64,000 nucleotides of DNA from Escherichia coli O127:H6 str. E2348/69 (GTDB taxonomy: Bacteria; Pseudomonadota; Gammaproteobacteria; Enterobacterales; Enterobacteriaceae), in NCBI RefSeq assembly GCF_000026545.1, contig NC_011601.1; one strand, written 5' to 3'. Shown here piece by piece: positions 5,128 to 58,311 of this stretch; position 1 is the first letter of the stretch; each line of letters opens with the position of its first letter. The translations under genes and the position numbers were made by a program. Below the pieces are notes generated by a model. It had not been told where the DNA came from, ran no database searches, and saw only the letters and a program-made list of their open reading frames with translations.

Positions 5128-5439
5128 ATGCTCTTCATCGAAACGGAAATTTTTACTGAAGATGTTCAAAAACTGCTGACCGACGATGAATTCAGTCGTT
5201 TTCAGTTTTTCCTGGCCTTGAATCCTGACTATGGTGAGGTAATACCTGAAACTGGTGGGTTAAGAAAGGTTCGATGGGTGTCAGGAGGAAAGGGGAAACG
5301 TGCTGGTGTCAGGGTTATTTACTTTCATCAGGTTAAACATTATGAGATCAGATTACTGCTTATTTATCGTAAGGGTATTAAAGATGATCTGTCTCCCCAG
5401 GAAAAAGCAATGCTCCGGTTGTTAAATACGAGGTGGTAA
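5128..5439 (+). CDS. RelE/HigB-superfamily toxin (type II TA)
   Basis: 103 aa, basic, toxin-first order, stop abuts the antitoxin ATG; sequence style typical of HigB-like addiction-module killers. Confidence 0.7.
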   Translation: MLFIETEIFTEDVQKLLTDDEFSRFQFFLALNPDYGEVIPETGGLRKVRWVSGGKGKRAGVRVIYFHQVKHYEIRLLLIYRKGIKDDLSPQEKAMLRLLNTRW

Positions 5440-5730
5440 ATGGATAAGGCACTTTTTGAGCGGTTGACTCACAGCATGGCCCAGATGAATGAAATTATTG
5501 AAGGAACGCGACAGCCTTCGCGGACTTTTGAAGTTGATGCTATGAAAATCAAAGAAATACGCCGCGCTTCAGGGTTGTCACAATCTAAATTTGCCGATCT
5601 TATTTCTGTAAGCGTAGACACGTTGCGTAACTGGGAGCAGGGGCGACGTTCACCGACCGGGCCTGCAAAGGCTTTGCTGCGAGCGATTGCCAATGATCCG
5701 CAACATGTGCTGCAAGCACTTAACCGTTAG
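5440..5730 (+). CDS. XRE-family HTH antitoxin (HigA-like)
   Basis: 96 aa; HTH signature SGLSQSKFADLISVSVDTLRNWEQGRR; ATG immediately after the toxin TAA with GAGGTGG SD inside the toxin 3' end. Confidence 0.7.
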   Translation: MDKALFERLTHSMAQMNEIIEGTRQPSRTFEVDAMKIKEIRRASGLSQSKFADLISVSVDTLRNWEQGRRSPTGPAKALLRAIANDPQHVLQALNR

Positions 5731-6776: not shown

Positions 6777-7706
6777 TTACTCCCCTTCACCCGGAAACAG
6801 GAACGGGTTAATGGAACTACGGGCATAGCCTTCTTGCTCCATTCGCGCGTCCAGTACCAGAGAGGCGAGGTCATCTGCCACGGCTTCAACTTTCGGTTCT
6901 TTTTCCTGATAAAGAATCTTCAGGTAAGTGCCGCAGTCATCGCAGCTTTCGGCTTTAATCGCGGCCTGTTCGTCATCCAGCGACCAGTAATGCAGTTTGC
7001 CGCTCTGTTCACAGTTGCTGCATTTTACGCGCACTACGTGCCATTCAGTTTCACACAGGTTGCAGCGCAGGTAACGCAGACCCTGAGTGGTGCCAATTTG
7101 CACCATGCTGGACACCGGCATAGAGCCACATACCGGGCAATATTGACGTTGTTCGCCGTATTCAGCGCGGGCTTTGCCGGGGATCAGATTAGCCATCTGC
7201 GCCCAGTAGAGCGACAGCGCAGCCCAGATAAACGGCGCTTTATCGCTGCTGACGGACGAGAAATCAGAGGCAAACAGCGCGCTGGCCATATCTTCCAGCT
7301 CCTGAGTCGATGCCTTCTCCAGATTCTCAATCACTGCCAGCGCCGGGCCGCTCATTTCAGGTTTCAGCTCAGCAATTAGCGCCATCAGCAGCTTTTGCCA
7401 GTGCTTATCACGCGGCAGAACGTGAATATCCAGCGGGGGCTTGCCCTGTGCGCTGGCTTCTTTAATGCGCGCGGTCAGATCCATCTCCAGCGGATGGTCG
7501 TACAGCACCACTTCCTGGGCGTGGGCGATAAGCGCAGCAAAGCGCAGGTAATCACCCAGCGGATTATTTTCTGCCAGCTCGCGCAGACGCTCGGCGCGGC
7601 GGTTGTATAAATTCTTGAGCCGAGGGAACAATAACGGCGGAATCATATCCGCCGTACGTTTCTCGCTCGAACCCAGCTCATCTTGCGGGATTATGCGAAT
7701 ACTCAT
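6777..7706 (-). CDS. fdhE: formate dehydrogenase accessory protein FdhE
   Basis: 309 aa; CxxC pairs; K-12 order. Confidence 0.93.
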
Positions 7707-8338
7707 TCAGCTTTCTTTTCCGTTGTCTTGCGGACCTCACGGTACCAGCGCGGGTGATGTTTCTTTGCCCAGGCGCTGGTCACCCATCCTTCCACCATGG
7801 CGGTAATCGTGCCTTTCACCCAAAGGGCGGCGTAGATATGCACCATGATAACCACAATTAACGCCACTGCGGCAAATGAATGCAGCATTAACGCGAATCG
7901 GATCACCGGGATTGAGAAAGCAGGCGCAAAATAAGGACGCCAGATAATCACGCCGCTCACCAGCAGCAGAACCAGGAAAATAATCGCCGCCCAGAAAACG
8001 CATTTCTGACCGAAGTTATAACGCCCGGTGTCACCTACTTCCTCGTTGACGACGATCTTACGAATATTCTTCGCCCAAAAGATATCATCCCGATTGATTA
8101 GGTTGTGATGCCAGTAACGGAAAAACATGATGATGAACGAGGCAAACATAACCACGCCGACAAACGGGTGCAGAATGCGCGCCAGCTGCGGTGTGCCCAT
8201 GATTTGCATCAACCAGTTGAAGGACGGGAACAAAAAGCCCAGCCCGCTCACCGCCGCCAGGATGAAGCAGAAGGCGGTGATCCAGTGGTTGATACGTTCC
8301 GGCGCGGTGTAGCGCACGATGGTGTCACGTCGTTTCAT
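7703..8338 (-). CDS. fdoI: formate dehydrogenase-O cytochrome b556 subunit
   Basis: 211 aa, four hydrophobic helices, overlaps fdhE and fdoH. Confidence 0.93.
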
Positions 8339-9237
8339 TTGCGCTCCTCGTCTTTCTCTTCGTGCAGATTATTCTCTTCCTCATCCGCACGGTTCGGACC
8401 GACACCCACGTAGTGGAAGATACTGGCTGCGAAGGTAGCCGCAAAGCCAACAGCTGCGAGCGGTTTCCAGATGCCTTTCCAGAATTTCACGGTTTCGCTG
8501 ATTTCCGGGTTCTCCGGCAAGCCATGATACAGATTTGGCTTGTCAGCATGGTGCAGCACGTACATAACATGTGTACCACCGACGCCTGCCGGGTCGTACA
8601 AACCCGCATTGTCGTAACCACGGGTTTTCAGCTCCGCCACGCGCTCGCTCGCCAGCGTTTTCATCGACTCTTTCGTACCGAAGTGAATCGCGCCCGTTGG
8701 GCAGGTCTTCACGCAGGCCGGTTCTTGCCCAACCACCACGCGGTCAACGCACAGCGTACATTTGTAGACGCGGTTGTCTTCCGGGTTGAGGCGCGGAATG
8801 TCGAACGGACAGCCCGCAATGCAATAACCGCAGCCGATGCACTGCTCGGACTGGAAGTCGACGATACCGTTGGAATACTGAATAATTGCCCCTTCCGCCG
8901 GGCACGCTTTCAGGCAGCCTGGATCGGAACAGTGCATACAGCCGTCTTTGCGGATCAGCCATTCCAGTTTGTCGTTCTGCTCCACTTCCGAGAATCGCAT
9001 CACCGTCCACGATTTGGCACTTAAATCATTGGGGTTGTCGTACACCCCAATGTTATTGCCGACGGTATCGCGAATGTCGTTCCACTCTGAACACGCCACC
9101 TGACAGGCTTTACAGCCGATACAGGTGGTAACGTCGATGAGTTTCGCCACTTCTTCCTGGAAGTCCCGCGCCTGAGGCGCGGGGGTCAGACCGTTAGTCG
9201 CGGAACGACGAATGATATCTTGCGATTGATAAGCCAT
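8335..9237 (-). CDS. fdoH: formate dehydrogenase-O iron-sulfur subunit
   Basis: 300 aa, multiple CxxCxxCxxxCP ferredoxin motifs, C-terminal TM helix. Confidence 0.93.
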
Positions 9238-9249
9238 ATGTCGTCTCCG

Positions 9250-12200
9250 TTACACCTTTTCCACATTCACAAGGAAGGACTTAAACTCCGGCGTCTGCGT
9301 GTTCGCATCACCGACGAATGGCGTCAACGTATTGGCAATAAAGCCTTTTTTCGCAACACCTTCATAGCCCCAGTGAATCGGAATACCGATGGTATCGATA
9401 TCTTTGCCGTTTGCTTTCAGCGTGCGAATACGTTTGGTCACTACCGCTTTGGCTTTGATATAGCCACGGTTGGAGGAGACTTTCACAGTATCGCCCTGGG
9501 CAATGCCAAGTTTATTCGCCAGCGACTCCCCGATTTCCACAAACTGCTCTGGTTGCAAAATCGCATTCAACAGCGCGTGTTTGGTCCAGTAGTGGAAGTG
9601 CTCGGTCAGACGATAGGTGGTTCCGACATACGGGAACTTATCGGCTTTACCCAATGCTTCGGCGTCGTCTTTAAAGATACGCGCAGCCGGGTTCGAGATA
9701 ACGTTTGGATGCAGCGGGTTAGTTCCCAGCGGCGTTTCAAACGGCTCGTAGTGTTCCGGGAACGGACCTTCCGCCATCTTATCGAGGGCAAACAGACGTC
9801 CCATGCCTTCCTGCTGCATGATAAACGGCCCTACGCCGCTGCCCGGAGGCGCTGCGCTGTAGTCCGGAATATCCCAGCCGGTCCACTTAGTGCCGTCCCA
9901 TTTCAGCAACTGACGCTTCGGATCCCATGGGTTACCCTGCGGATCTGCGGAGGCGCGGTTATACAGAATGCGGCGGTTTAGCGGCCATGCCCATGCCCAG
10001 CCCAGCGTGTTACCGAGGCCAGACGGATCGGCGTTATCACGACGCGCCATCTGGTTGCCTTCCGGCGTCCAGCTACCGGCGAAAATCCAGCAGCCACAGG
10101 AGGTTGTACCGTCATCGCGCAGTTGGGCGAACGAGCTAAGTTGTTGGCCTTTCTTGACGATAACCGCACCGGTTGCCGGGTCGGTAATATCGGCCAGCGC
10201 TTTGCCGTTGCTCTCCATTGCCACTTCTTCTGAAGATGGCTCATGCGGAATGGCGTAGTTCCAGGTCATGTTCAGCACCTGGTCCGGGTTCGCGCCACCC
10301 TGTTCGGCATACATCTTGCGCAAGCGCAGGAAGATACCGGAGAGGATCTCGCCATCAGTCAGCGCAATCCCCGGGGCGTCCGCACCTTTCCAGTGCCACT
10401 GTAACCAGCGACCTGAGTTAACGATAGAACCGTTCTCTTCCGCGAAGCAGGTCGATGGTAGACGGAACACTTCGGTCTGGATCTTCGACGAGTCAACTTC
10501 GTTCAGCTCACCGTGGTTCTGCCAGAAGTTAGAGGTTTCAGTGTTCAGCGGGTCGATAGTCACGAGGAATTTCAGCTTCGACAGACAGCCGATCACTTTG
10601 TTTTTGTTCGGGAATGAGGCAACAGGGTTAAAGCCCTGGCAGATATAGCCATTGACCTTGCCTTCTTTCATCATCTCGAAGTATTGCAGGACGTCGTAGC
10701 CTTTATCCCACTTCGGCAACCAGTCAAAGCCCCAGCTATTTTCCGCCGTCGCTTTATCACCAAAGAAGGCCTTCATCATAGAGACGAAGAATTTCGGGTA
10801 GTTGCCCCAGTAGTTTACCTGGCCTTCCAGCAGCGGTTTTGGCGTGTTGGCGGTAAGGTAGGTTTGCAGATCGGTCTGCTTCTCGCTTGGCAGCGTCATG
10901 TAACCTGGCAGGCTCTGCGACAGCAGCCCCAGGTCGGTCAGCCCCTGAATATTGGAGTGACCGCGCAGGGCGTTAACGCCGCCGCCAGCCATCCCCATAT
11001 TGCCGAGCAGCAACTGGATCATCGCCATCGTACGGATGTTCTGCGCACCGATGGAGTGTTGCGTCCAGCCGAGCGCGTAAAGGAACGAGGCAGTTTTATC
11101 GTGAGCACTGGTTTCGGCGATGTATTCGCAGACTTTCAGGAATGCGTCTTTTGGCGTACCACAGATGTTTTCAACCACATCTGGCGTGTAGCGGGAAACG
11201 TGCTGTTTCAGCAAGTTCCACACGCAACGTGGATGTTGCAGGGTAGTATCGCGTTTGGCGAAGCCGTTTTCGTCCAGTTCGTAAGTCCAGGTGGACTTAT
11301 CGTACTTGCGTTTTTCCGCGTCGTAGCCGGTGAACAGGCCATCTTCAAAGCCGTAATCCTCACGCACGATCAGGCTAGCGTTGGTATAGGCTTCGGTGTA
11401 TTCGCGGTTGAATTTTTCATTGTTCAGCAGGTACAGCAATACGCCTGACAGGAAAGCAATGTCAGTACCGGAACGGATAGGGGCATAGTAGTCAGCCACC
11501 GCCGCTGTACGTGTAAAGCGAGGATCGATCACAATCAGCTTCGCGCCGTTGTGAATTTTGGCTTCCATCGCCCAGCGGAACCCGACCGGGTGAGCTTCAG
11601 CGGCGTTACCGCCCATCACCACGACGAGGTTGGCATTCTTGATGTCGACCCAGTGGTTGGTCATCGCACCGCGACCAAATGTTGGAGCAAGACTTGCTAC
11701 CGTTGGTCCGTGTCAGACACGCGCCTGGTTGTCGACCGCGAGCATACCCAGCGCGCGGGAGAATTTTTGCGTTAAATAGCCGGTTTCGTTACTCGACGCG
11801 GAAGCACACAGCATCCCGGTGGAGAGCCAGCGGTTAACAGTCACGCCTTCGGCGTTTTGCGCAATGTAGTTCGCATCGCGGTCTTCTTTCATCAGTTTGG
11901 CGATGCGATCAAACGCCTCTTCCCAACTGATTTGCTGCCATTTATCAGAACCTGGCGCACGGTATTCCGGAAACTTCAGGCGGCTTTCGGAGTGGATGAA
12001 ATCCACCAGGCCAGCGCCTTTCGGACAAAGTGCTCCGCGGTTGACCGGGTGATCCGGGTCACCTTCGATATGGAAGATAGATGCTTTGGCGTTTTTTGCT
12101 CCGTCACCGAGGCTGTACATCAACAGCCCACAGCCTACGGAACAATAGGTGCAGGTATTACGGGTTTCGCGGGTGCGCAGCAGTTTATACTGCCGGGTTT

Positions 12201-12300
12201 CCGCGAGTGCTACGCTGGGTGCAAAACCCAGTGCCGCTGCCGTGGTGCCTGCCATACCGCCAGCGCAGATCTTAAAGAACTGCCTTCTGCTGACCTGCAT
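9250..12300 (-). CDS. fdoG: formate dehydrogenase-O major subunit, selenoprotein (in-frame UGA = Sec at 11713..11715)
   Basis: track ORFs 11713..12300 (195 aa, Tat signal SRRQFFK) and 9250..11664 (804 aa) are in one frame separated only by TGA; joined length is 1016 aa. Confidence 0.92.
11668..11712 (-). other. SECIS-like hairpin immediately 3' of the fdoG UGA
   Basis: mRNA reads UGA-CACGGACCAACGGUAGCAAGUCUUGCUCC..., a stem with an AGUC-type apical loop resembling the fdhF SECIS. Confidence 0.6.
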
Positions 12301-12493: not shown

Positions 12494-13330
12494 GTGAAAA
12501 AAACACAGCAAAAAGAAATCGAGAATGTGACAAATATCACAGGTGTTCGTCAAATTGAGTTATGGCGGCGTGATGATTTACAACACCCACGGTTAGATGA
12601 GGTGGCGGAAGAAGTTCCCGTTGCGCTGGTCTACAACGGCATTTCGCATGTGGTGATGATGGCGTCGCCCAAAGACCTTGAGTACTTTGCGCTCGGTTTT
12701 TCGCTTTCCGAAGGAATTATCGAAAGCCCGCGCGATATCTTCGGCATGGATGTCGTTCCTTCCTGTAATGGCCTGGAAGTACAAATTGAGCTTTCCAGCC
12801 GCCGCTTTATGGGGTTGAAGGAACGCCGCCGGGCGCTGGCGGGACGTACGGGCTGTGGCGTATGCGGTGTAGAACAGCTTAACGATATCGGTAAACCGGT
12901 GCAGCCGCTGCCGTTCACCCAGACGTTTGATCTCAACAAACTGGATGATGCATTACGTCATCTCAATGATTTCCAGCCAGTGGGGCAACTGACTGGTTGT
13001 ACTCACGCCGCTGCATGGATGTTGCCATCTGGCGAACTGGTCGGCGGGCATGAAGACGTGGGTCGCCATGTGGCGCTGGACAAACTGTTAGGCCGCCGGT
13101 CACAAGAAGGGGAAAGCTGGCAGCAAGGTGCGGTGCTGGTTTCCAGCCGTGCCAGTTATGAAATGGTGCAAAAGTCGGCGATGTGCGGCGTAGAGATTTT
13201 GTTTGCGGTGTCTGCCGCGACCACACTTGCTGTAGAAGTGGCTGAGCGCTGTAATCTGACGCTGGTGGGCTTTTGTAAACCGGGTCGGGCAACGGTTTAT
13301 ACCCATCCGCAGCGTTTGGTTCATAATTAA
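12494..13330 (+). CDS. fdhD: formate dehydrogenase sulfurtransferase FdhD
   Basis: 278-aa ORF from a GTG start, divergent from fdoG. Confidence 0.9.
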
Positions 13331-13640: not shown

Positions 13641-15476
13641 ATGAGTACATTACAGTTACCTGGCAGTTCATATTCTACTGAAGTTAATTTAAACGGCTTA
13701 ATTGAGGTGCTCAGTAAGCACCTTTACTCTACCCCCGTGGTCGCCGTGCGCGAGCTGGTGCAGAACGGACACGATGCGATCGTGCGCCGCAGGATTGAGC
13801 AGCCCGATGCGCCAAAGGATAACCAAATTCGTGTGGTGGCAGACGTGGCGAAGTCCACCATCACCATTACCGATACCGGTGCGGGTTTGACAGAAAGCGA
13901 AATTCACGGCTTCCTGGCAACAGTGGGCGTGGGTTATACCCGAATGTTGCGCCAGCAGGATGACAACACCGGTTTAATTGGTATGTTCGGCCTTGGTTTC
14001 TTGTCAGCATTTGTACTTGCAAAAGAGGTCACGGTGTTGACCACATCCTGGCAAACGCCGGATCAGAGCTGGAAATACCACTCTACCGACGGGCAAAAAT
14101 ATACCGTTACGCCGCATCAGTCCTCGGAAACGGGAACGCAGGTGATTCTGACGCTCAAAGAAGAGTACAGCCATCTGGCGAGTAACAATTTGCTGAACCG
14201 CGTTCTTTCCCGCTACTGTGTATTGCTGCACGAACCGGTCTATGTCGGCGATGCCAGCGAGCCGGTAAATAAACTTCAACCACCGTGGCGTGAAGTTGCC
14301 CCCGAAGGCGTAACCATACACCGCGCGCTGGTACAGCGTAAAAATCTCGCCTTTGCCGCCCAGTTTGAATCCTCCTTCGAACCGATTTGCACCATTCCGG
14401 TGGTGCCAGCGGGAATGAGCGACGCGGTTGGGATTTTATGGATTCAGGATGGCGCGACCTACGGCACCAGCGATAACCGCAACCTGTCGTTGTTTTTGCG
14501 CGGCATGTTACTGGATGATGAAGCGCGTGAGTTGTTACCGCCCTGGGCCGGATTTATTGGCGGCGTGATTGAGTCATCGAAACTGACGCCGACGGCGAGC
14601 AGGGAAGATCTCCAGCGGGATGCAACCTGGGTTGCGGTACAGGAGGCGTTAAAAGAGGCGCTGATTTCTGGTTTGTCCGATCTCGCACAAAATCAGCCAG
14701 AAATCTGGCGGCGGGTATTAATGCGCCACAACGAAGCGTTGCTGGGTGCGGCCTTGTGTGATGACCGTCTGTTTGATTTGCTCAAAGATCGCTTGCAGGT
14801 GCCAACGTCAAAAGGGGCGCTGCTGGCGAAGGATTTACGCGTTAATAACAGCATTCATATTCTGTTAAGCCGCGACGGCGGTTTTGAAGAGATGTTGTTC
14901 CATATTCTGCAACGGCCTGTAGCCCGTGGCGATCGCTATGCGGTGGTGCCATTTTTACGCCGTTGGGCGCTGTTATATCACTGCCGGATTGTCGAAGTCG
15001 GTACGCAAACGGGTAATGAGCAGTTGTTCAGCCTGGCAGAATTACCCAAAGAGCAGGTGGCTTATCTGGAAGAGCATCTCTGCGACGGCGAGCAATTAAT
15101 TATCTCACGCTTCGAACCCGCCGTTTTACCGTTAGTGGTTACACCAGACCGCGAAGCAGAATTAAAACAAATTCTCGAACAGGATGACGCAGATAAACGC
15201 ATCAGTACCGCAGCGTTAATGCTGGCGCGGCAATTTACCTCGCAAATCCAAAAATCTAAAACTTCAAGTCTGTATATCAACCTTAATAACCCCTGTGTCA
15301 TGCAACTGGTGACGGCCTTACAACACCATCAACAGCCAGCGGCAGCATTACGGTTATTAAAATCGCTGAAAGTGATTTTGTGCTCCAGCGGTAATAAAGA
15401 ACAGCAGTGGGATTTACACCAGGCACTGGAAGATTTTACTCAGGTTATTCCTGTCTTAATTAATCAAGGAAAATAA
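13641..15476 (+). CDS. divergent Hsp90/HtpG-family paralog (GHKL ATPase with Hsp90 middle domain)
   Basis: 611 aa; N-terminus aligns by eye to HtpG: YSTEV..LYS..VRELVQNGHDA (HtpG FQSEV..LYS..LRELISNASDA), ITDTGAGLTESE (ISDNGVGMTRDE), GLIGMFGLGFLSAF (QLIGQFGVGFYSAF); middle domain LFLRGMLLDDEARELLP...IESSKLTPTASREDLQ (LYVQRVFIMDDAEQFMP...IDSSDLPLNVSREILQ). Confidence 0.8.
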   Translation: MSTLQLPGSSYSTEVNLNGLIEVLSKHLYSTPVVAVRELVQNGHDAIVRRRIEQPDAPKDNQIRVVADVAKSTITITDTGAGLTESEIHGFLATVGVGYTRMLRQQDDNTGLIGMFGLGFLSAFVLAKEVTVLTTSWQTPDQSWKYHSTDGQKYTVTPHQSSETGTQVILTLKEEYSHLASNNLLNRVLSRYCVLLHEPVYVGDASEPVNKLQPPWREVAPEGVTIHRALVQRKNLAFAAQFESSFEPICTIPVVPAGMSDAVGILWIQDGATYGTSDNRNLSLFLRGMLLDDEARELLPPWAGFIGGVIESSKLTPTASREDLQRDATWVAVQEALKEALISGLSDLAQNQPEIWRRVLMRHNEALLGAALCDDRLFDLLKDRLQVPTSKGALLAKDLRVNNSIHILLSRDGGFEEMLFHILQRPVARGDRYAVVPFLRRWALLYHCRIVEVGTQTGNEQLFSLAELPKEQVAYLEEHLCDGEQLIISRFEPAVLPLVVTPDREAELKQILEQDDADKRISTAALMLARQFTSQIQKSKTSSLYINLNNPCVMQLVTALQHHQQPAAALRLLKSLKVILCSSGNKEQQWDLHQALEDFTQVIPVLINQGK

Positions 15477-15477
15477 A

Positions 15478-17784
15478 ATGGATACATGGGAGTGGTACAA
15501 CAAATATAGTCAAGAGTTGCGTGATGCCGGGCAAGAATATATTCCGCAGCTTATTGATGATTTTTCAGAAAGTGTTTTGCACCTACAAATAGAAAAATGT
15601 GATTCGCTATTGCCGGAAATGAAAGCACTGAATCAAGTCGCCAAAAATCCGTGGCTGGAAATATTTATTGGTCACTGGGAAATGCGTCATCGCCTGACTA
15701 ACTATGAAGAAGGTGAAAAGGTGCTGCCAGACGTGGTAGCGCTGTTTGAAAAAGCGCATCGGGAAGAGGCGAAAGATTGCCCGCAATCTATCTGCGTTAC
15801 CCAGGATTTATCAGCCTGCTACGAAAATATTGACGCACCAGGCTGGGCGAATGAACGCATGGCGGTGTGTGAAGAAACCATCGCGCGCATTGATCCGACC
15901 TGGAGCTGTTTTCAGTGTTTGTCCACTGAATATGCCAGCGCACTGATAGATTCCAAAAGAACAGAGGAGGCACTGGCTTATCTGGATCGGCAAATCGACG
16001 CAGTTAAAGCAGCCGGGAAAGATGATATTGATCCATTACTTTATACTCGCGCCGATATTCTGATTGAACTTCAGCGTTATGATGAAGCACGCAAATTGAT
16101 TGATGAGCTGACAGAAGCCAATGATTACTGGGGCCGCGACCGCATTAGTAATCACCTAAAAAAACTGTACATCATGGCGTTATGCGGGCAGGACGAAGAA
16201 GTCTGGGAGGAATTACCGCGTTGGTCCGATCTGACTCCGCATTCATGGGGGTCATGGCTGAAAATCATTACTGTGTTACTTCCCCGTCATCCACAAAGAA
16301 ACAACTGGCAACTGGCGCGCATCATCCAGAAAATGCTGGAGCAACGTTCACAGGCCGGGGCGCATCGAAAAGTGGTTAATCTGGCAAAACTACAAATCAC
16401 CCTGGCGCTGGAGCGTGAATCCGTCTGGGTTGCCAAAATAGCGATGAAACTGGCCCAGCGACACATGCCAAAATTACGCGCGTTACTGGGCGTCGATCGC
16501 GAGTTTCTCGAACTTAGCGAAAAAATCGCCACCAAAGAAGCAGAGTTGCTTGCTCGTCCGGTTGTAGAAGTACCTGAAAATAGCGACGAAGAAACGCAGC
16601 CAGATCCAGAAAAAGACGTCGAAATATTCCGCCGCGCTTATCTGAACACACCAGACGATGCAGAGTTACTGGGCAAACTGGTCAATGCGTTAAATGCCTG
16701 TAATGCGATTAATGAGTCAATTGAACTTCTGCAACGCTATGTTGAAAGCCACCTCCATGAAGATAATGGTCTTTGCTTCGATCTGTTGGATTTATTGCTC
16801 CACCGTGACGATCTGCAAACCATTGAGCACCTGGCGAAGCAGTATGAACAGGCGGGGCTGCTACATATGGCCTTGTGGTTCCGGGCGCGAGTGATCAACC
16901 AACAGGAAGACTGGAGTGAACTGGAGTCGATTGGACAACAGTTGCTGCAAAACGAAAAAGGGCGTGAGTGGGTTGGCGTTTATCGCATGTGCTCCTGGGC
17001 AGCACAAAAACAGGAAGCCTGGGATCGACAGCTGGATTATTTACAACAATTGCAGCAACTGATGATTAGCCGTGAAGAAGATATTCGTAATCTCCAGTGG
17101 GATATCATGGCGACCGCCAGCATCCTGCAACAATGGGATTTGGTTCGTGCTATTGCTGCTGAACTGGAAATCGAACTCACGGAAGGTGAAGGTTTTATTG
17201 ACGAAAAATGGGGGCTGCTAAACATTCGCTTCCGGGAAAATTATGAATACCGCTATTACTATGCTCAACGTATTGGGCCGGTAACCGCAAGGATCATTGA
17301 GCCAACTTACCGGACCGATTATCCGCAACATGTTGATGAGGTTGTGGTATTCGATGCAGAAATGTTGAATACCCGACCAGAGGATGAGGAAGAGCAGAAG
17401 AATTTCACTCCGCTTTATGGGTGCCTGAAAACCATTATCCCGACCGAATACGGCGAGTCCTGGTTCTGCGAAGGTGTCATGCCTGGTGAAGAAGAGTTTA
17501 ATACTTTCCGTGAGGCGCTCCGTGAACGAAACTGGTACTACTGGAGCAACAGTAATGACGACTATACGTTAACGGACAGTCATCAAGGAGAAGGCGCTGA
17601 GCCGCTGTCTGCATTCTATTTTGTTATCAGTGCGCCGCGTTCAGTTTCTAAAGGTGATATCGACAAGACCTTGCACGAATTGACCGCTGACTGGAAACAT
17701 CCGTTGTGCTGGTGGCGTCTTGCCAAAGAAGCCGGGGCGAATGAAGAGAAACATGCTGCTATTGCCGAGAGATATGGAATGTAA
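15478..17784 (+). CDS. 768-aa acidic, predicted all-helical repeat protein of unknown function, coupled to the Hsp90 paralog
   Basis: ATG one nucleotide after the upstream TAA; long uninterrupted ORF; TPR-like amphipathic segments; Trp/Tyr-rich C-terminal region; no catalytic motif I can name. Confidence 0.65.
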   Translation: MDTWEWYNKYSQELRDAGQEYIPQLIDDFSESVLHLQIEKCDSLLPEMKALNQVAKNPWLEIFIGHWEMRHRLTNYEEGEKVLPDVVALFEKAHREEAKDCPQSICVTQDLSACYENIDAPGWANERMAVCEETIARIDPTWSCFQCLSTEYASALIDSKRTEEALAYLDRQIDAVKAAGKDDIDPLLYTRADILIELQRYDEARKLIDELTEANDYWGRDRISNHLKKLYIMALCGQDEEVWEELPRWSDLTPHSWGSWLKIITVLLPRHPQRNNWQLARIIQKMLEQRSQAGAHRKVVNLAKLQITLALERESVWVAKIAMKLAQRHMPKLRALLGVDREFLELSEKIATKEAELLARPVVEVPENSDEETQPDPEKDVEIFRRAYLNTPDDAELLGKLVNALNACNAINESIELLQRYVESHLHEDNGLCFDLLDLLLHRDDLQTIEHLAKQYEQAGLLHMALWFRARVINQQEDWSELESIGQQLLQNEKGREWVGVYRMCSWAAQKQEAWDRQLDYLQQLQQLMISREEDIRNLQWDIMATASILQQWDLVRAIAAELEIELTEGEGFIDEKWGLLNIRFRENYEYRYYYAQRIGPVTARIIEPTYRTDYPQHVDEVVVFDAEMLNTRPEDEEEQKNFTPLYGCLKTIIPTEYGESWFCEGVMPGEEEFNTFREALRERNWYYWSNSNDDYTLTDSHQGEGAEPLSAFYFVISAPRSVSKGDIDKTLHELTADWKHPLCWWRLAKEAGANEEKHAAIAERYGM

Positions 17785-23073: not shown

Positions 23074-24468
23074 ATGAAAAAATCGACATTATCTTTAGCC
23101 ATCGGTTTATTATTGGCATGTAGTACCGGTATGGCAAAAACACAGCATTTAACGCTGGAACAACGCATGGCATTGCTGGAAGAACGCCTGGAAGCGGCAG
23201 AAATGCGGGCAGCAAAAGCAGAGGGGCAGGTTAAACAGCTTCAGACACAACAAGCCGCCGAGATCCGCGAAATTAAGATCGCACAGGGCAACACGCCGGT
23301 AAACGGTCAATCAACGACGGAGTCAGAGAAGAAAAACGCCACCCCGCCTAATCTCCTGCTTTCAGGGTATGGCGATTTAAAAATCTACGGTGACGTAGAA
23401 TTTAATATGGATGCGGAAAGTAATCATGGCCTGCTGGCAATGACCAACGCTGATGTGAATAGCGATCCCACTAATGAACAGTGGAATCTCAATGGTCGTA
23501 TTCTGTTAGGTTTTGATGGTATGCGAAAACTGGATAATGGCTATTTCGCTGGGTTCTCCGTACAACCGCTGGGGGATATGCACGGTTCAGTAAATATCGA
23601 TGATGCGGTTTTCTTCTTTGGCAAAGAAAACGACTGGAAGGTCAAAGTAGGCCGTTTTGAAGCCTACGATATGTTCCCGCTGAATCAGGATACCTTTGTT
23701 GAACATTCCGGTAATACTGCGAACGATCTTTATGACGATGGCAGCGGTTATATCTATATGATGAAAGAGGGCCGCGGGCGTTCTAACGCTGGCGGTAATT
23801 TCCTCGTCAGCAAACAACTCGATAACTGGTATTTTGAATTAAACACGTTACTTGAAGACGGAACATCTTTATATAATGACGGTAATTATCATGGACGCGA
23901 TATGGAGCAGCAGAAAAATGTTGCTTATCTGCGTCCGGTAATTGCCTGGTCGCCGACGGAAGAATTCACCGTTTCCGCAGCGATGGAAGCGAACGTAGTA
24001 AATAATGCTTATGGTTATACCGATAGCAAGGGTAATTTTGTCGATCAGTCCGATCGTACCGGCTATGGTATGAGCATGACCTGGAATGGCCTGAAAACGG
24101 ATCCGGAAAATGGCGTCGTGGTTAATCTTAATACCGCCTATTTAGATGCTAATAATGAGAAAGATTTCACTGCCGGGATTAACGCGCTGTGGAAACGTTT
24201 CGAGCTGGGTTATATCTACGCACATAATAAGATTGATGAATTTAGTGGCGTGGTTTGTGATAACGATTGCTGGATTGATGATGAAGGAACATACAACATT
24301 CACACCATTCATGCGTCTTATCAGTTCGCTAATGTGATGGATATGGAGAACTTTAATATTTACCTCGGCACGTATTACTCCATTCTGGATAGCGACGGCG
24401 ATAAGATACACGGCGACGATAGTGATGACCGTTACGGCGCACGCGTTCGCTTTAAATACTTCTTCTGA
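23074..24468 (+). CDS. putative outer-membrane beta-barrel porin with N-terminal coiled-coil (carbohydrate-porin-like)
   Basis: 464 aa; signal peptide MKKSTLSLAIGLLLACSTGMA; heptad-like LTLEQRMALLEERLEAAEMRAAKAEGQVKQLQ; alternating aromatic/polar strands; C-terminal ...RFKYFF; AGGGA SD upstream; absent from K-12 order as I recall it. Confidence 0.6.
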   Translation: MKKSTLSLAIGLLLACSTGMAKTQHLTLEQRMALLEERLEAAEMRAAKAEGQVKQLQTQQAAEIREIKIAQGNTPVNGQSTTESEKKNATPPNLLLSGYGDLKIYGDVEFNMDAESNHGLLAMTNADVNSDPTNEQWNLNGRILLGFDGMRKLDNGYFAGFSVQPLGDMHGSVNIDDAVFFFGKENDWKVKVGRFEAYDMFPLNQDTFVEHSGNTANDLYDDGSGYIYMMKEGRGRSNAGGNFLVSKQLDNWYFELNTLLEDGTSLYNDGNYHGRDMEQQKNVAYLRPVIAWSPTEEFTVSAAMEANVVNNAYGYTDSKGNFVDQSDRTGYGMSMTWNGLKTDPENGVVVNLNTAYLDANNEKDFTAGINALWKRFELGYIYAHNKIDEFSGVVCDNDCWIDDEGTYNIHTIHASYQFANVMDMENFNIYLGTYYSILDSDGDKIHGDDSDDRYGARVRFKYFF

Positions 24469-25699: not shown

Positions 25700-25845
25700 A
25701 TGTACGATCTGTAGGCCGGATAAGGCACTCGTGCCGCATCCGGCATTTGAGCAGGATGCCTGATGCGACGCTGTCGCGTCTTATCAGGCCTACAACTATT
25801 GCCGACCCGTAGGCCGGATAAGGCACTTGTGCCGCATCCGGCAGT
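25700..25845. repeat. BIME: three REP palindromic units between rhaA and rhaD
   Basis: GTAGGCCGGATAAGGC...GCCGCATCCGGCA twice and GCCTGATGCGACGCTGTCGCGTCTTATCAGGCCTAC once. Confidence 0.85.
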
Positions 25846-34632: not shown

Positions 34633-34716
34633 GTAGGCCTGATAAGACGCTATCAGCGTCGCATCAGGCATCCTGCTCAAATGCCGGATGCGGCGTAAAC
34701 GCCTTATCCTGCCTAC
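34633..34716. repeat. REP palindromic units (two) between yiiM and cpxA
   Basis: GTAGGCCTGATAAGACGC...GCATCAGGCA and ATGCCGGATGCGGCGTAAACGCCTTATCCTGCCTAC. Confidence 0.85.
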
Positions 34717-39694: not shown

Positions 39695-39793
39695 GGCCTG
39701 ATGCGCTTCGCTTATCAGGCCTACATGAATTCTGTAATCTATTGAATTTGCAAACTTTTGTAGGCCGGATAAGGCGTTTGTGCCGCATCCGGC
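39695..39793. repeat. REP palindromic units after pfkA
   Basis: GCCTGATGCGCTTCGCTTATCAGGCCTAC and GTAGGCCGGATAAGGCGTTTGTGCCGCATCCGGCA. Confidence 0.85.
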
Positions 39794-52917: not shown

Positions 52918-53448
52918 TTACGCTTTGTAGCTTAATTCTTCGATGGTGTGGAAATGGTTGGTATAGATGCAAATGTCGCCTGCAATATCCAACGCCTTTT
53001 CAGCAATTTCACGGGCGCTAAGTTCAGTGTTTTCTAACAGCGCGCGCGCCGCAGCCTGGGCGTAAGGGCCGCCAGAGCCGATAGCAATAAGATCGTTTTC
53101 TGGCTGCACCACGTCACCGTTACCGGTGATGATAAGCGATGCAGTTTCATCCGCGACTGCCAGCAGTGCTTCAAGTTTGCGCAGCATGCGATCGGTACGC
53201 CAGTCTTTCGCCAGCTCAACGGCGGCTTTGACCAGATGGCCCTGATGCATTTCCAGTTTACGTTCAAACAGTTCGAACAGCGTAAAAGCATCCGCAGTAC
53301 CGCCCGCAAAGCCCGCGATGACTTTGTCGTTGTACAGACGGCGGACCTTTTTCACGTTGCCTTTCATTACGGTATTGCCCAACGTGGCCTGACCATCACC
53401 AGCGATGACCACATGGCCGTTACGGCGTACGCTTACTATAGTTGTCAC
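52918..53448 (-). CDS. hslV: ATP-dependent protease subunit HslV
   Basis: 176 aa, [20 protein letters not shown]. Confidence 0.95.
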
Positions 53449-53516
53449 GAGCTGACCCCTTGGTTACGAATACAGAGTACAAACCCCGTACAAAAGTACG
53501 GGGCATAATGCAATTA

Positions 53517-55697: not shown

Positions 55698-58055
<2,358 letters not shown>

Positions 58056-58059
58056 TTAG

Positions 58060-58311
<252 letters not shown>

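Follow-up and report, generated by a model that had tools for sequence, protein, structure and literature searches.

An in-frame UGA at codon 196 of fdoG in Escherichia coli E2348/69 is very probably read as selenocysteine

In a 64,000-nucleotide stretch of DNA from Escherichia coli O127:H6 str. E2348/69, here called the window, two minus-strand open reading frames of 195 and 804 amino acids lie in one frame and are separated by a TGA, which raises the question of whether this codon ends a short protein, marks a broken gene, or is translated. The window is the reverse complement of positions 4677516–4741515 of NZ_CP059840.2, a stretch of ordinary core chromosome that reaches from tsx/metL to yihX. 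We conclude, with a probability of about 98%, that the TGA is codon 196 of fdoG and encodes selenocysteine (Sec) by way of a SECIS element and the elongation factor SelB. This is already known, a textbook feature of the gene. The features discussed below are collected in Table 1.

An earlier note on this DNA had placed the two frames in register, with the TGA at 11713–11715, and both its coordinates and its frame were correct. Around codon 196 the minus strand reads GCG CGT GTC TGA CAC GGA CCA ACG GTA GCA AGT CTT GCT CCA ACA TTT GGT CGC GGT GCG ATG, the TGA occupying 11715–11713. Translation of 9250–12300 in one frame meets two stops, codon 196 and the terminal TAA, and no additional disruption of the frame. 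With 16 sense codons between the TGA and the 804-aa frame, the joined product has 195 + 1 + 16 + 804 = 1016 residues, the length that the note had proposed. The coding sequence of 3051 nt is 100% identical to the E2348/69 chromosome, and sequences at least 95% identical to it occur in 5424 of 5433 records and in 5425 of 5426 complete E. coli genomes.

Table 1. Features at the fdoG locus, in window coordinates
Feature	Position	Strand	Basis
fdoG, complete CDS, formate dehydrogenase O alpha subunit, 1016 aa including Sec196	9250..12300	-	One internal TGA
N-terminal 'fragment' ORF, 195 aa	11713..12300	-	ORF list
C-terminal 'fragment' ORF, 804 aa, from Met213	9250..11664	-	ORF list
UGA codon 196, very probably decoded as selenocysteine	11713..11715	-	Sequence and alignment to Sec of 1kqf_A and 8cm4_A
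SECIS element, Rfam RF01989 SECIS_3, inside the CDS	11660..11718	-	Covariance model, full length 1-59/59
SECIS upper stem-loop, presumed SelB-binding part, positions 15-32	11684..11701	-	MFE and Rfam consensus concordant
71-nt block identical in fdoG and paralog fdnG, spanning UGA and SECIS	11648..11718	-	Paralog alignment
fdoH, iron-sulfur beta subunit	8335..9237	-	TIGR01582 478.3 bits; PGAP concordant
fdoI, cytochrome b556 gamma subunit	7703..8338	-	NF007924 453.3 bits vs 243.6 on FdnI model NF007558
fdhE, formate dehydrogenase accessory protein	6777..7706	-	PGAP annotation of identical record, coordinates converted
fdhD, accessory sulfurtransferase, divergent	12494..13330	+	TIGR00129 338.9 bits; PGAP concordant

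The two frames divide the expected domains between them. The 195-aa frame holds a Tat signal, SRRQFFK (residues 4–10), and the cysteines C50, C53, C57 and C92, whose roles in [4Fe-4S] binding are taken from the literature (PMC3636253); the 804-aa frame holds the molybdopterin-binding domains and Arg446. One could suppose two separate genes, one for a 195-aa Fe-S protein and one for an 804-aa molybdopterin protein, as indeed they appear in public gene calls, which list separate products on thousands of contigs. Three results speak against such a division. The 16 codons from the TGA to Met213 (HGPTVASLAPTFGRGA) are open and align residue for residue to the continuous FdnG chain of structure 1KQF; the full-length NCBIfam model TIGR01553 matches residues 2–1015 in one unbroken stretch (1573.9 bits against a cut-off of 814.2); and a published peptide crosses the junction (PMC3636253). 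In view of the continuous alignment and the junction-spanning selenopeptide we reject the two-gene reading, to which we leave almost no probability.

The alignments also place the UGA at the catalytic position. For protein alignments and profile searches the UGA residue was replaced by X. The query aligned end to end with 1kqf_A (FdnG; residues 1–1015, 1900.8 bits), with X196 opposite the X that stands for Sec196 in the motif QARV-X-HGPTVASLAPTFGRGAMTNHW (QARV-U-HGPTV), and X196 likewise lies opposite the Sec of 8cm4_A (QARI-X-HSPTV), which is Desulfovibrio vulgaris FdhA, 'formate dehydrogenase, alpha subunit, selenocysteine-containing'. The comparison with known selenoproteins suggested in the earlier note thus came out as the note had expected, and its description of the product as a molybdopterin formate dehydrogenase with Sec in the active site is borne out by the TIGR01553 score and by the position of the UGA at Sec196 of 1KQF. 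Mass spectrometry on E. coli MC4100 detected the peptide V-Sec196-HGPTVASLAPTFGR from FdoG/FdnG, and Cys at residue 196 was never found (PMC3636253). This direct experimental proof of Sec196 belongs to the K-12 lineage; in E2348/69 the same residue is predicted. E. coli has been described as having three selenocysteine codons only, in fdhF, fdnG and fdoG (PMC3636253).

Which of the two respiratory enzymes the gene encodes is a separate matter, as PGAP names it 'fdnG / formate dehydrogenase-N subunit alpha' in all RefSeq genomes that we saw, and the equivalog model TIGR01553 does not tell FdoG from FdnG. Because of its match to K-12 FdoG, the arrangement of its neighbors and the gamma-subunit model scores (Table 1), we assign the gene, by orthology and by the fdoGHI-fdhE / fdhD synteny, to fdoG (FDH-O) and not to fdnG. 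The translated product agrees with K-12 FdoG at 1015 of 1017 positions and with FdnG at 781 of 1017.

K-12 fdoG (b3894) has the same 3051 nt, 1016 aa and TGA at codon 196, and its 51-nt SECIS is identical; the two genes differ elsewhere (2986 of 3051 nt identical, about 2% divergence, with two amino-acid differences). The K-12 element is known from the literature to bind SelB and to promote read-through of the UGA. E. coli fdnG (b1474; 1KQF) shares the Sec196 motif, the 71-nt block over UGA and SECIS, and the domain architecture. It is, however, a paralog of 1015 aa at a separate locus, fdnGHI, with 75% nucleotide identity. FDH-N is induced by nitrate and anaerobiosis, whereas FDH-O expression is more constitutive.

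We searched for the RNA signal with bacterial SECIS covariance models. Rfam SECIS_3 scored 84.3 bits (gathering score 63; E = 1.3e-20), with the UGA at model positions 4–6, whereas SECIS_2 (RF01988, the fdhF type) reached 28.1 bits on the window sequence against a gathering score of 70. The fdoG site is the sole SECIS match across the 64-kb window. With the U of the UGA numbered 1, the upper hairpin begins 11 nt past the UGA and is predicted to contain the pairs G15–C32, G16–C31, A18–U30, G19–C29, C20–G28, A21–U27 and a weak A22–U26, with U17 (11699) unpaired as a bulge and the loop nucleotides G23, U24 and C25 at 11693–11691. The predicted apical loop is GUC, closed by A22–U26, or AGUCU if the weak pair is open. 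The earlier note had seen a hairpin with an AGUC apical loop immediately after the UGA. A hairpin is present, but AGUC is the run of positions 22–25, homologous to the GGUC of fdhF, rather than the loop itself, and 'immediately' holds for the weaker lower helix, which reaches the UGA, and not for the presumed SelB-binding hairpin. In that lower helix the Rfam and minimum-free-energy (MFE) registers differ, and its pairing is approximate.

In the published layout of the E. coli SECIS, 11 nt separate the UGA from the upper stem-loop, U17 is bulged out and G23/U24 lie in the apical loop, U17 and G23 being the sites that SelB contacts (PMC8659212). The geometry of the fdoG element fits this layout, and it also fits fdhF, which was folded in parallel and adopted the same register. 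Like the SECIS of fdhF, the reference bacterial element, that of fdoG has CACGG after the UGA, a hairpin starting from G15, a bulged U at 17/18, and G23-U24-C25 in the loop. The two nevertheless belong to different families: fdhF is of the Rfam SECIS_2 type with a 4-nt GGUC loop and an upper hairpin of 17 nt, while the fdoG hairpin has 18 nt and a GUC loop closed by A–U, and the sequence of the lower helix differs.

The MFE structure contains the upper stem-loop at positions 15–32, but the folding energy of the 51-nt segment is no better than chance when compared with 200 shuffles (z = −0.76; 41 of 200 fold equally well). Because the segment folds no better than its shuffles, we dropped folding energy as an argument. 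That the SECIS is not a random hairpin rests on the covariance-model match and on the frozen synonymous sites described below, and not on thermodynamics.

The alternative that the TGA is a nonsense mutation, making fdoG a pseudogene in E2348/69, could draw on this non-significant energy and on the naive ORF list, which gives two fragments. Conservation of the TGA decides against it. The codon is kept at position 196 in K-12 fdoG and fdnG and in homologues from Kosakonia, Hafnia and Cronobacter, a set that was retrieved via the split 195- and 804-aa fragments and has 80–86% overall nucleotide identity. Of 5433 E. coli records, 5432 carry a 71-mer around the TGA without a single change, and each genome has it twice. 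Moreover, the UGA lies opposite the catalytic Sec of solved structures, the frame is otherwise intact, and PGAP raises no pseudogene flag. We therefore reject the pseudogene reading as ruled out by the data on TGA conservation, and its remaining probability is minute.

The nucleotide sequence downstream of the UGA is frozen to an extent that the surrounding gene is not. Among the homologues from other genera, codons 197–212 are unchanged in all comparisons (16/16 in Hafnia, 16/16 in Cronobacter, 15/15 in Kosakonia), against 54–66% outside the element, and the cross-genus substitutions within the SECIS are confined to the unpaired internal loop. Frozen codons of this kind are the signature of an RNA-level constraint over coding sequence. 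Paired positions of the SECIS do not vary between E. coli fdoG, fdnG and the homologues from Kosakonia, Hafnia and Cronobacter, and no compensatory changes occur among these sequences. Relative to the Rfam consensus, A18–U30 and A21–U27 replace G–C and C–G, respectively, both sides having changed with pairing kept. The support from covariation thus comes from the Rfam model only, and what the Enterobacterales sequences show is conservation, not covariation.

The 16 codons in the SECIS (window 11662–11712, minus strand) include GGA, ACG, GTA, AGT, CTT and ACA. These are non-preferred codons in E. coli, and their use here would fit an RNA structure that takes precedence over codon preference.

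The same constraint is visible between the paralogs. Over their whole length, fdoG and fdnG have 75% nucleotide identity, and codons for the same amino acid are identical in only 58% of cases. The block that spans UGA and SECIS is nonetheless identical for 71 nt (gene nt 583–653), starting 3 nt before the UGA; it is the longest run of identity between the two genes, the next being 36 nt. This identity exceeds the predicted hairpin by about 20 nt, and these hold only four degenerate codons. One might propose that this identity, kept between fdoG and fdnG and across genera, points to something besides SelB binding, either repeated gene conversion between the two genes or an additional regulatory function of the element, e.g., SelB-dependent pausing or translational control. 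We consider this unlikely: selection on the SECIS, together with a fully conserved peptide, accounts for most of the 71-nt identity, and a second role is not required.

UGA is the leakiest stop codon of E. coli, and read-through by a standard tRNA (near-cognate Trp or Cys) or frameshifting could in principle yield a full-length product without SelB and Sec. Beyond this general property nothing specific favors such a route, which we regard as highly improbable. A high-scoring SECIS stands at the correct distance from the UGA, and the frame is the same on either side of it. Nearly all of the species has the tRNA-Sec gene, selC (a species-level count of 5424 in 5426 complete E. coli genomes), and the cited mass spectrometry gave Sec, never Cys, at residue 196. 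Within the 64-kb window, selA, selB, selC and selD are absent, and it contains no tRNA genes.

Decoding of the UGA as selenocysteine, the reading that we prefer, would proceed as follows. The fdoG product is the catalytic subunit of formate dehydrogenase O, a respiratory enzyme that faces the periplasm. As the ribosome reaches codon 196, the UGA would be decoded as Sec and not as a stop, the mRNA directly 3′ of it being folded into the SECIS hairpin, to whose upper stem-loop the specialised elongation factor SelB would attach by its C-terminal domain. As SelB·GTP, the factor would bring Sec-tRNA(Sec), which derives from selC and needs SelA and SelD for its making, to the A site, where its delivery at the UGA would compete with release factor 2. 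In the folded enzyme, Sec196 would coordinate the molybdenum of the active-site bis-MGD cofactor, beside His197 and Arg446, active-site partners that are both present in FdoG. Published work describes binding of SelB·GTP·Sec-tRNA(Sec) to the apical region of the SECIS by its C-terminal winged-helix domains, and competition by RF2 (PMC8124441; PMC10778597). What is said here of SelB binding, of the incorporation of selenium and of Sec196 in catalysis comes from the literature and would hold likewise in E2348/69. What the present analysis itself established is the reading frame and the alignment of the UGA with Sec196, that the RNA matches the SECIS model and has its geometry, that synonymous sites are frozen, in which operon the gene lies, and that tRNA-Sec is nearly universal in E. 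coli.

The earlier note had further predicted that automated annotation would call a pseudogene or two fragments. This is not so for RefSeq/PGAP, which gives a single intact CDS of 3051 nt with no pseudogene or join flags in E2348/69, K-12 and Ecol_448, but naive gene callers do split the gene into 195 + 804. In the window, the split products would extend over 11716–12300 and 9253–11664, both on the minus strand. A public protein collection contains both fragments, 804 and 195 aa, in exactly this form, each from at least 1000 contigs and in clusters of 6687 and 3382 members, respectively, and the same split occurs in the called genes of Kosakonia-, Hafnia- and Cronobacter-type contigs. The name 'sulfate ABC transporter substrate-binding protein', borne by a few 195-aa cluster members from Cronobacter and Hafnia, is an annotation error that has spread. 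The value of the result is mainly that of an annotation check, as ORF-based callers still split fdoG and leave its fragments in databases by the thousands; the interpretation of the UGA is correct, ordinary and already known, and it brings no new biology.

The genes on either side are those expected for the formate dehydrogenase O locus: fdoH, fdoI and fdhE lie downstream of fdoG and the divergent fdhD upstream, the fdoGHI-fdhE / fdhD arrangement of K-12. A promoter and terminator scan of the fdoG-fdhD intergenic region returned no matches. Beyond fdhD the flanks differ, since K-12 has yiiG beside fdhD, whereas E2348/69 has an Hsp90-family gene and a TPR gene there.

These two genes form a cassette between fdhD and frvR (window 13641–17784, plus strand), in which the second gene's start and the first gene's stop lie 1 nt apart. 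The first encodes a divergent Hsp90-family ATPase of 611 aa, which scored 288 bits with NF010683 ('HSP90 family protein') and 198 bits with the HtpG model, both under the cut-off, and which in the PDB comes closest to TRAP1 and HtpG (~1e-30). A TPR protein of 768 aa is the product of the second. An Hsp90 paralog paired with a TPR partner is unusual for bacteria. At this position K-12 has yiiG only, and Ecol_448 has both the cassette and yiiG. Of 5426 complete E. coli genomes, only 254 have the cassette, in most cases with 90–95% nucleotide identity. PADLOC gave only weak matches to the N-terminal ATPase part and none for the TPR protein.

Two further loci look like small strain-variable insertions: a pair of genes near yiiE, nadS and one for a 'hypothetical protein' (window 5128–5730, plus strand), where K-12 has yiiF, and a 'carbohydrate porin' gene between rhaM and frvA (window 23074–24468, plus strand). 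Among RNA families, two copies of naRNA4 (CssrE) and one of ES036 (CssrF) scored above the Rfam gathering scores, the naRNA4 and ES036 sites lying at 25714–25790 (plus strand), 34636–34713 (minus strand) and 39717–39758 (minus strand). Rfam also matched a ClpQY promoter element at 53446–53503 and an L31 leader at 58040–58092.
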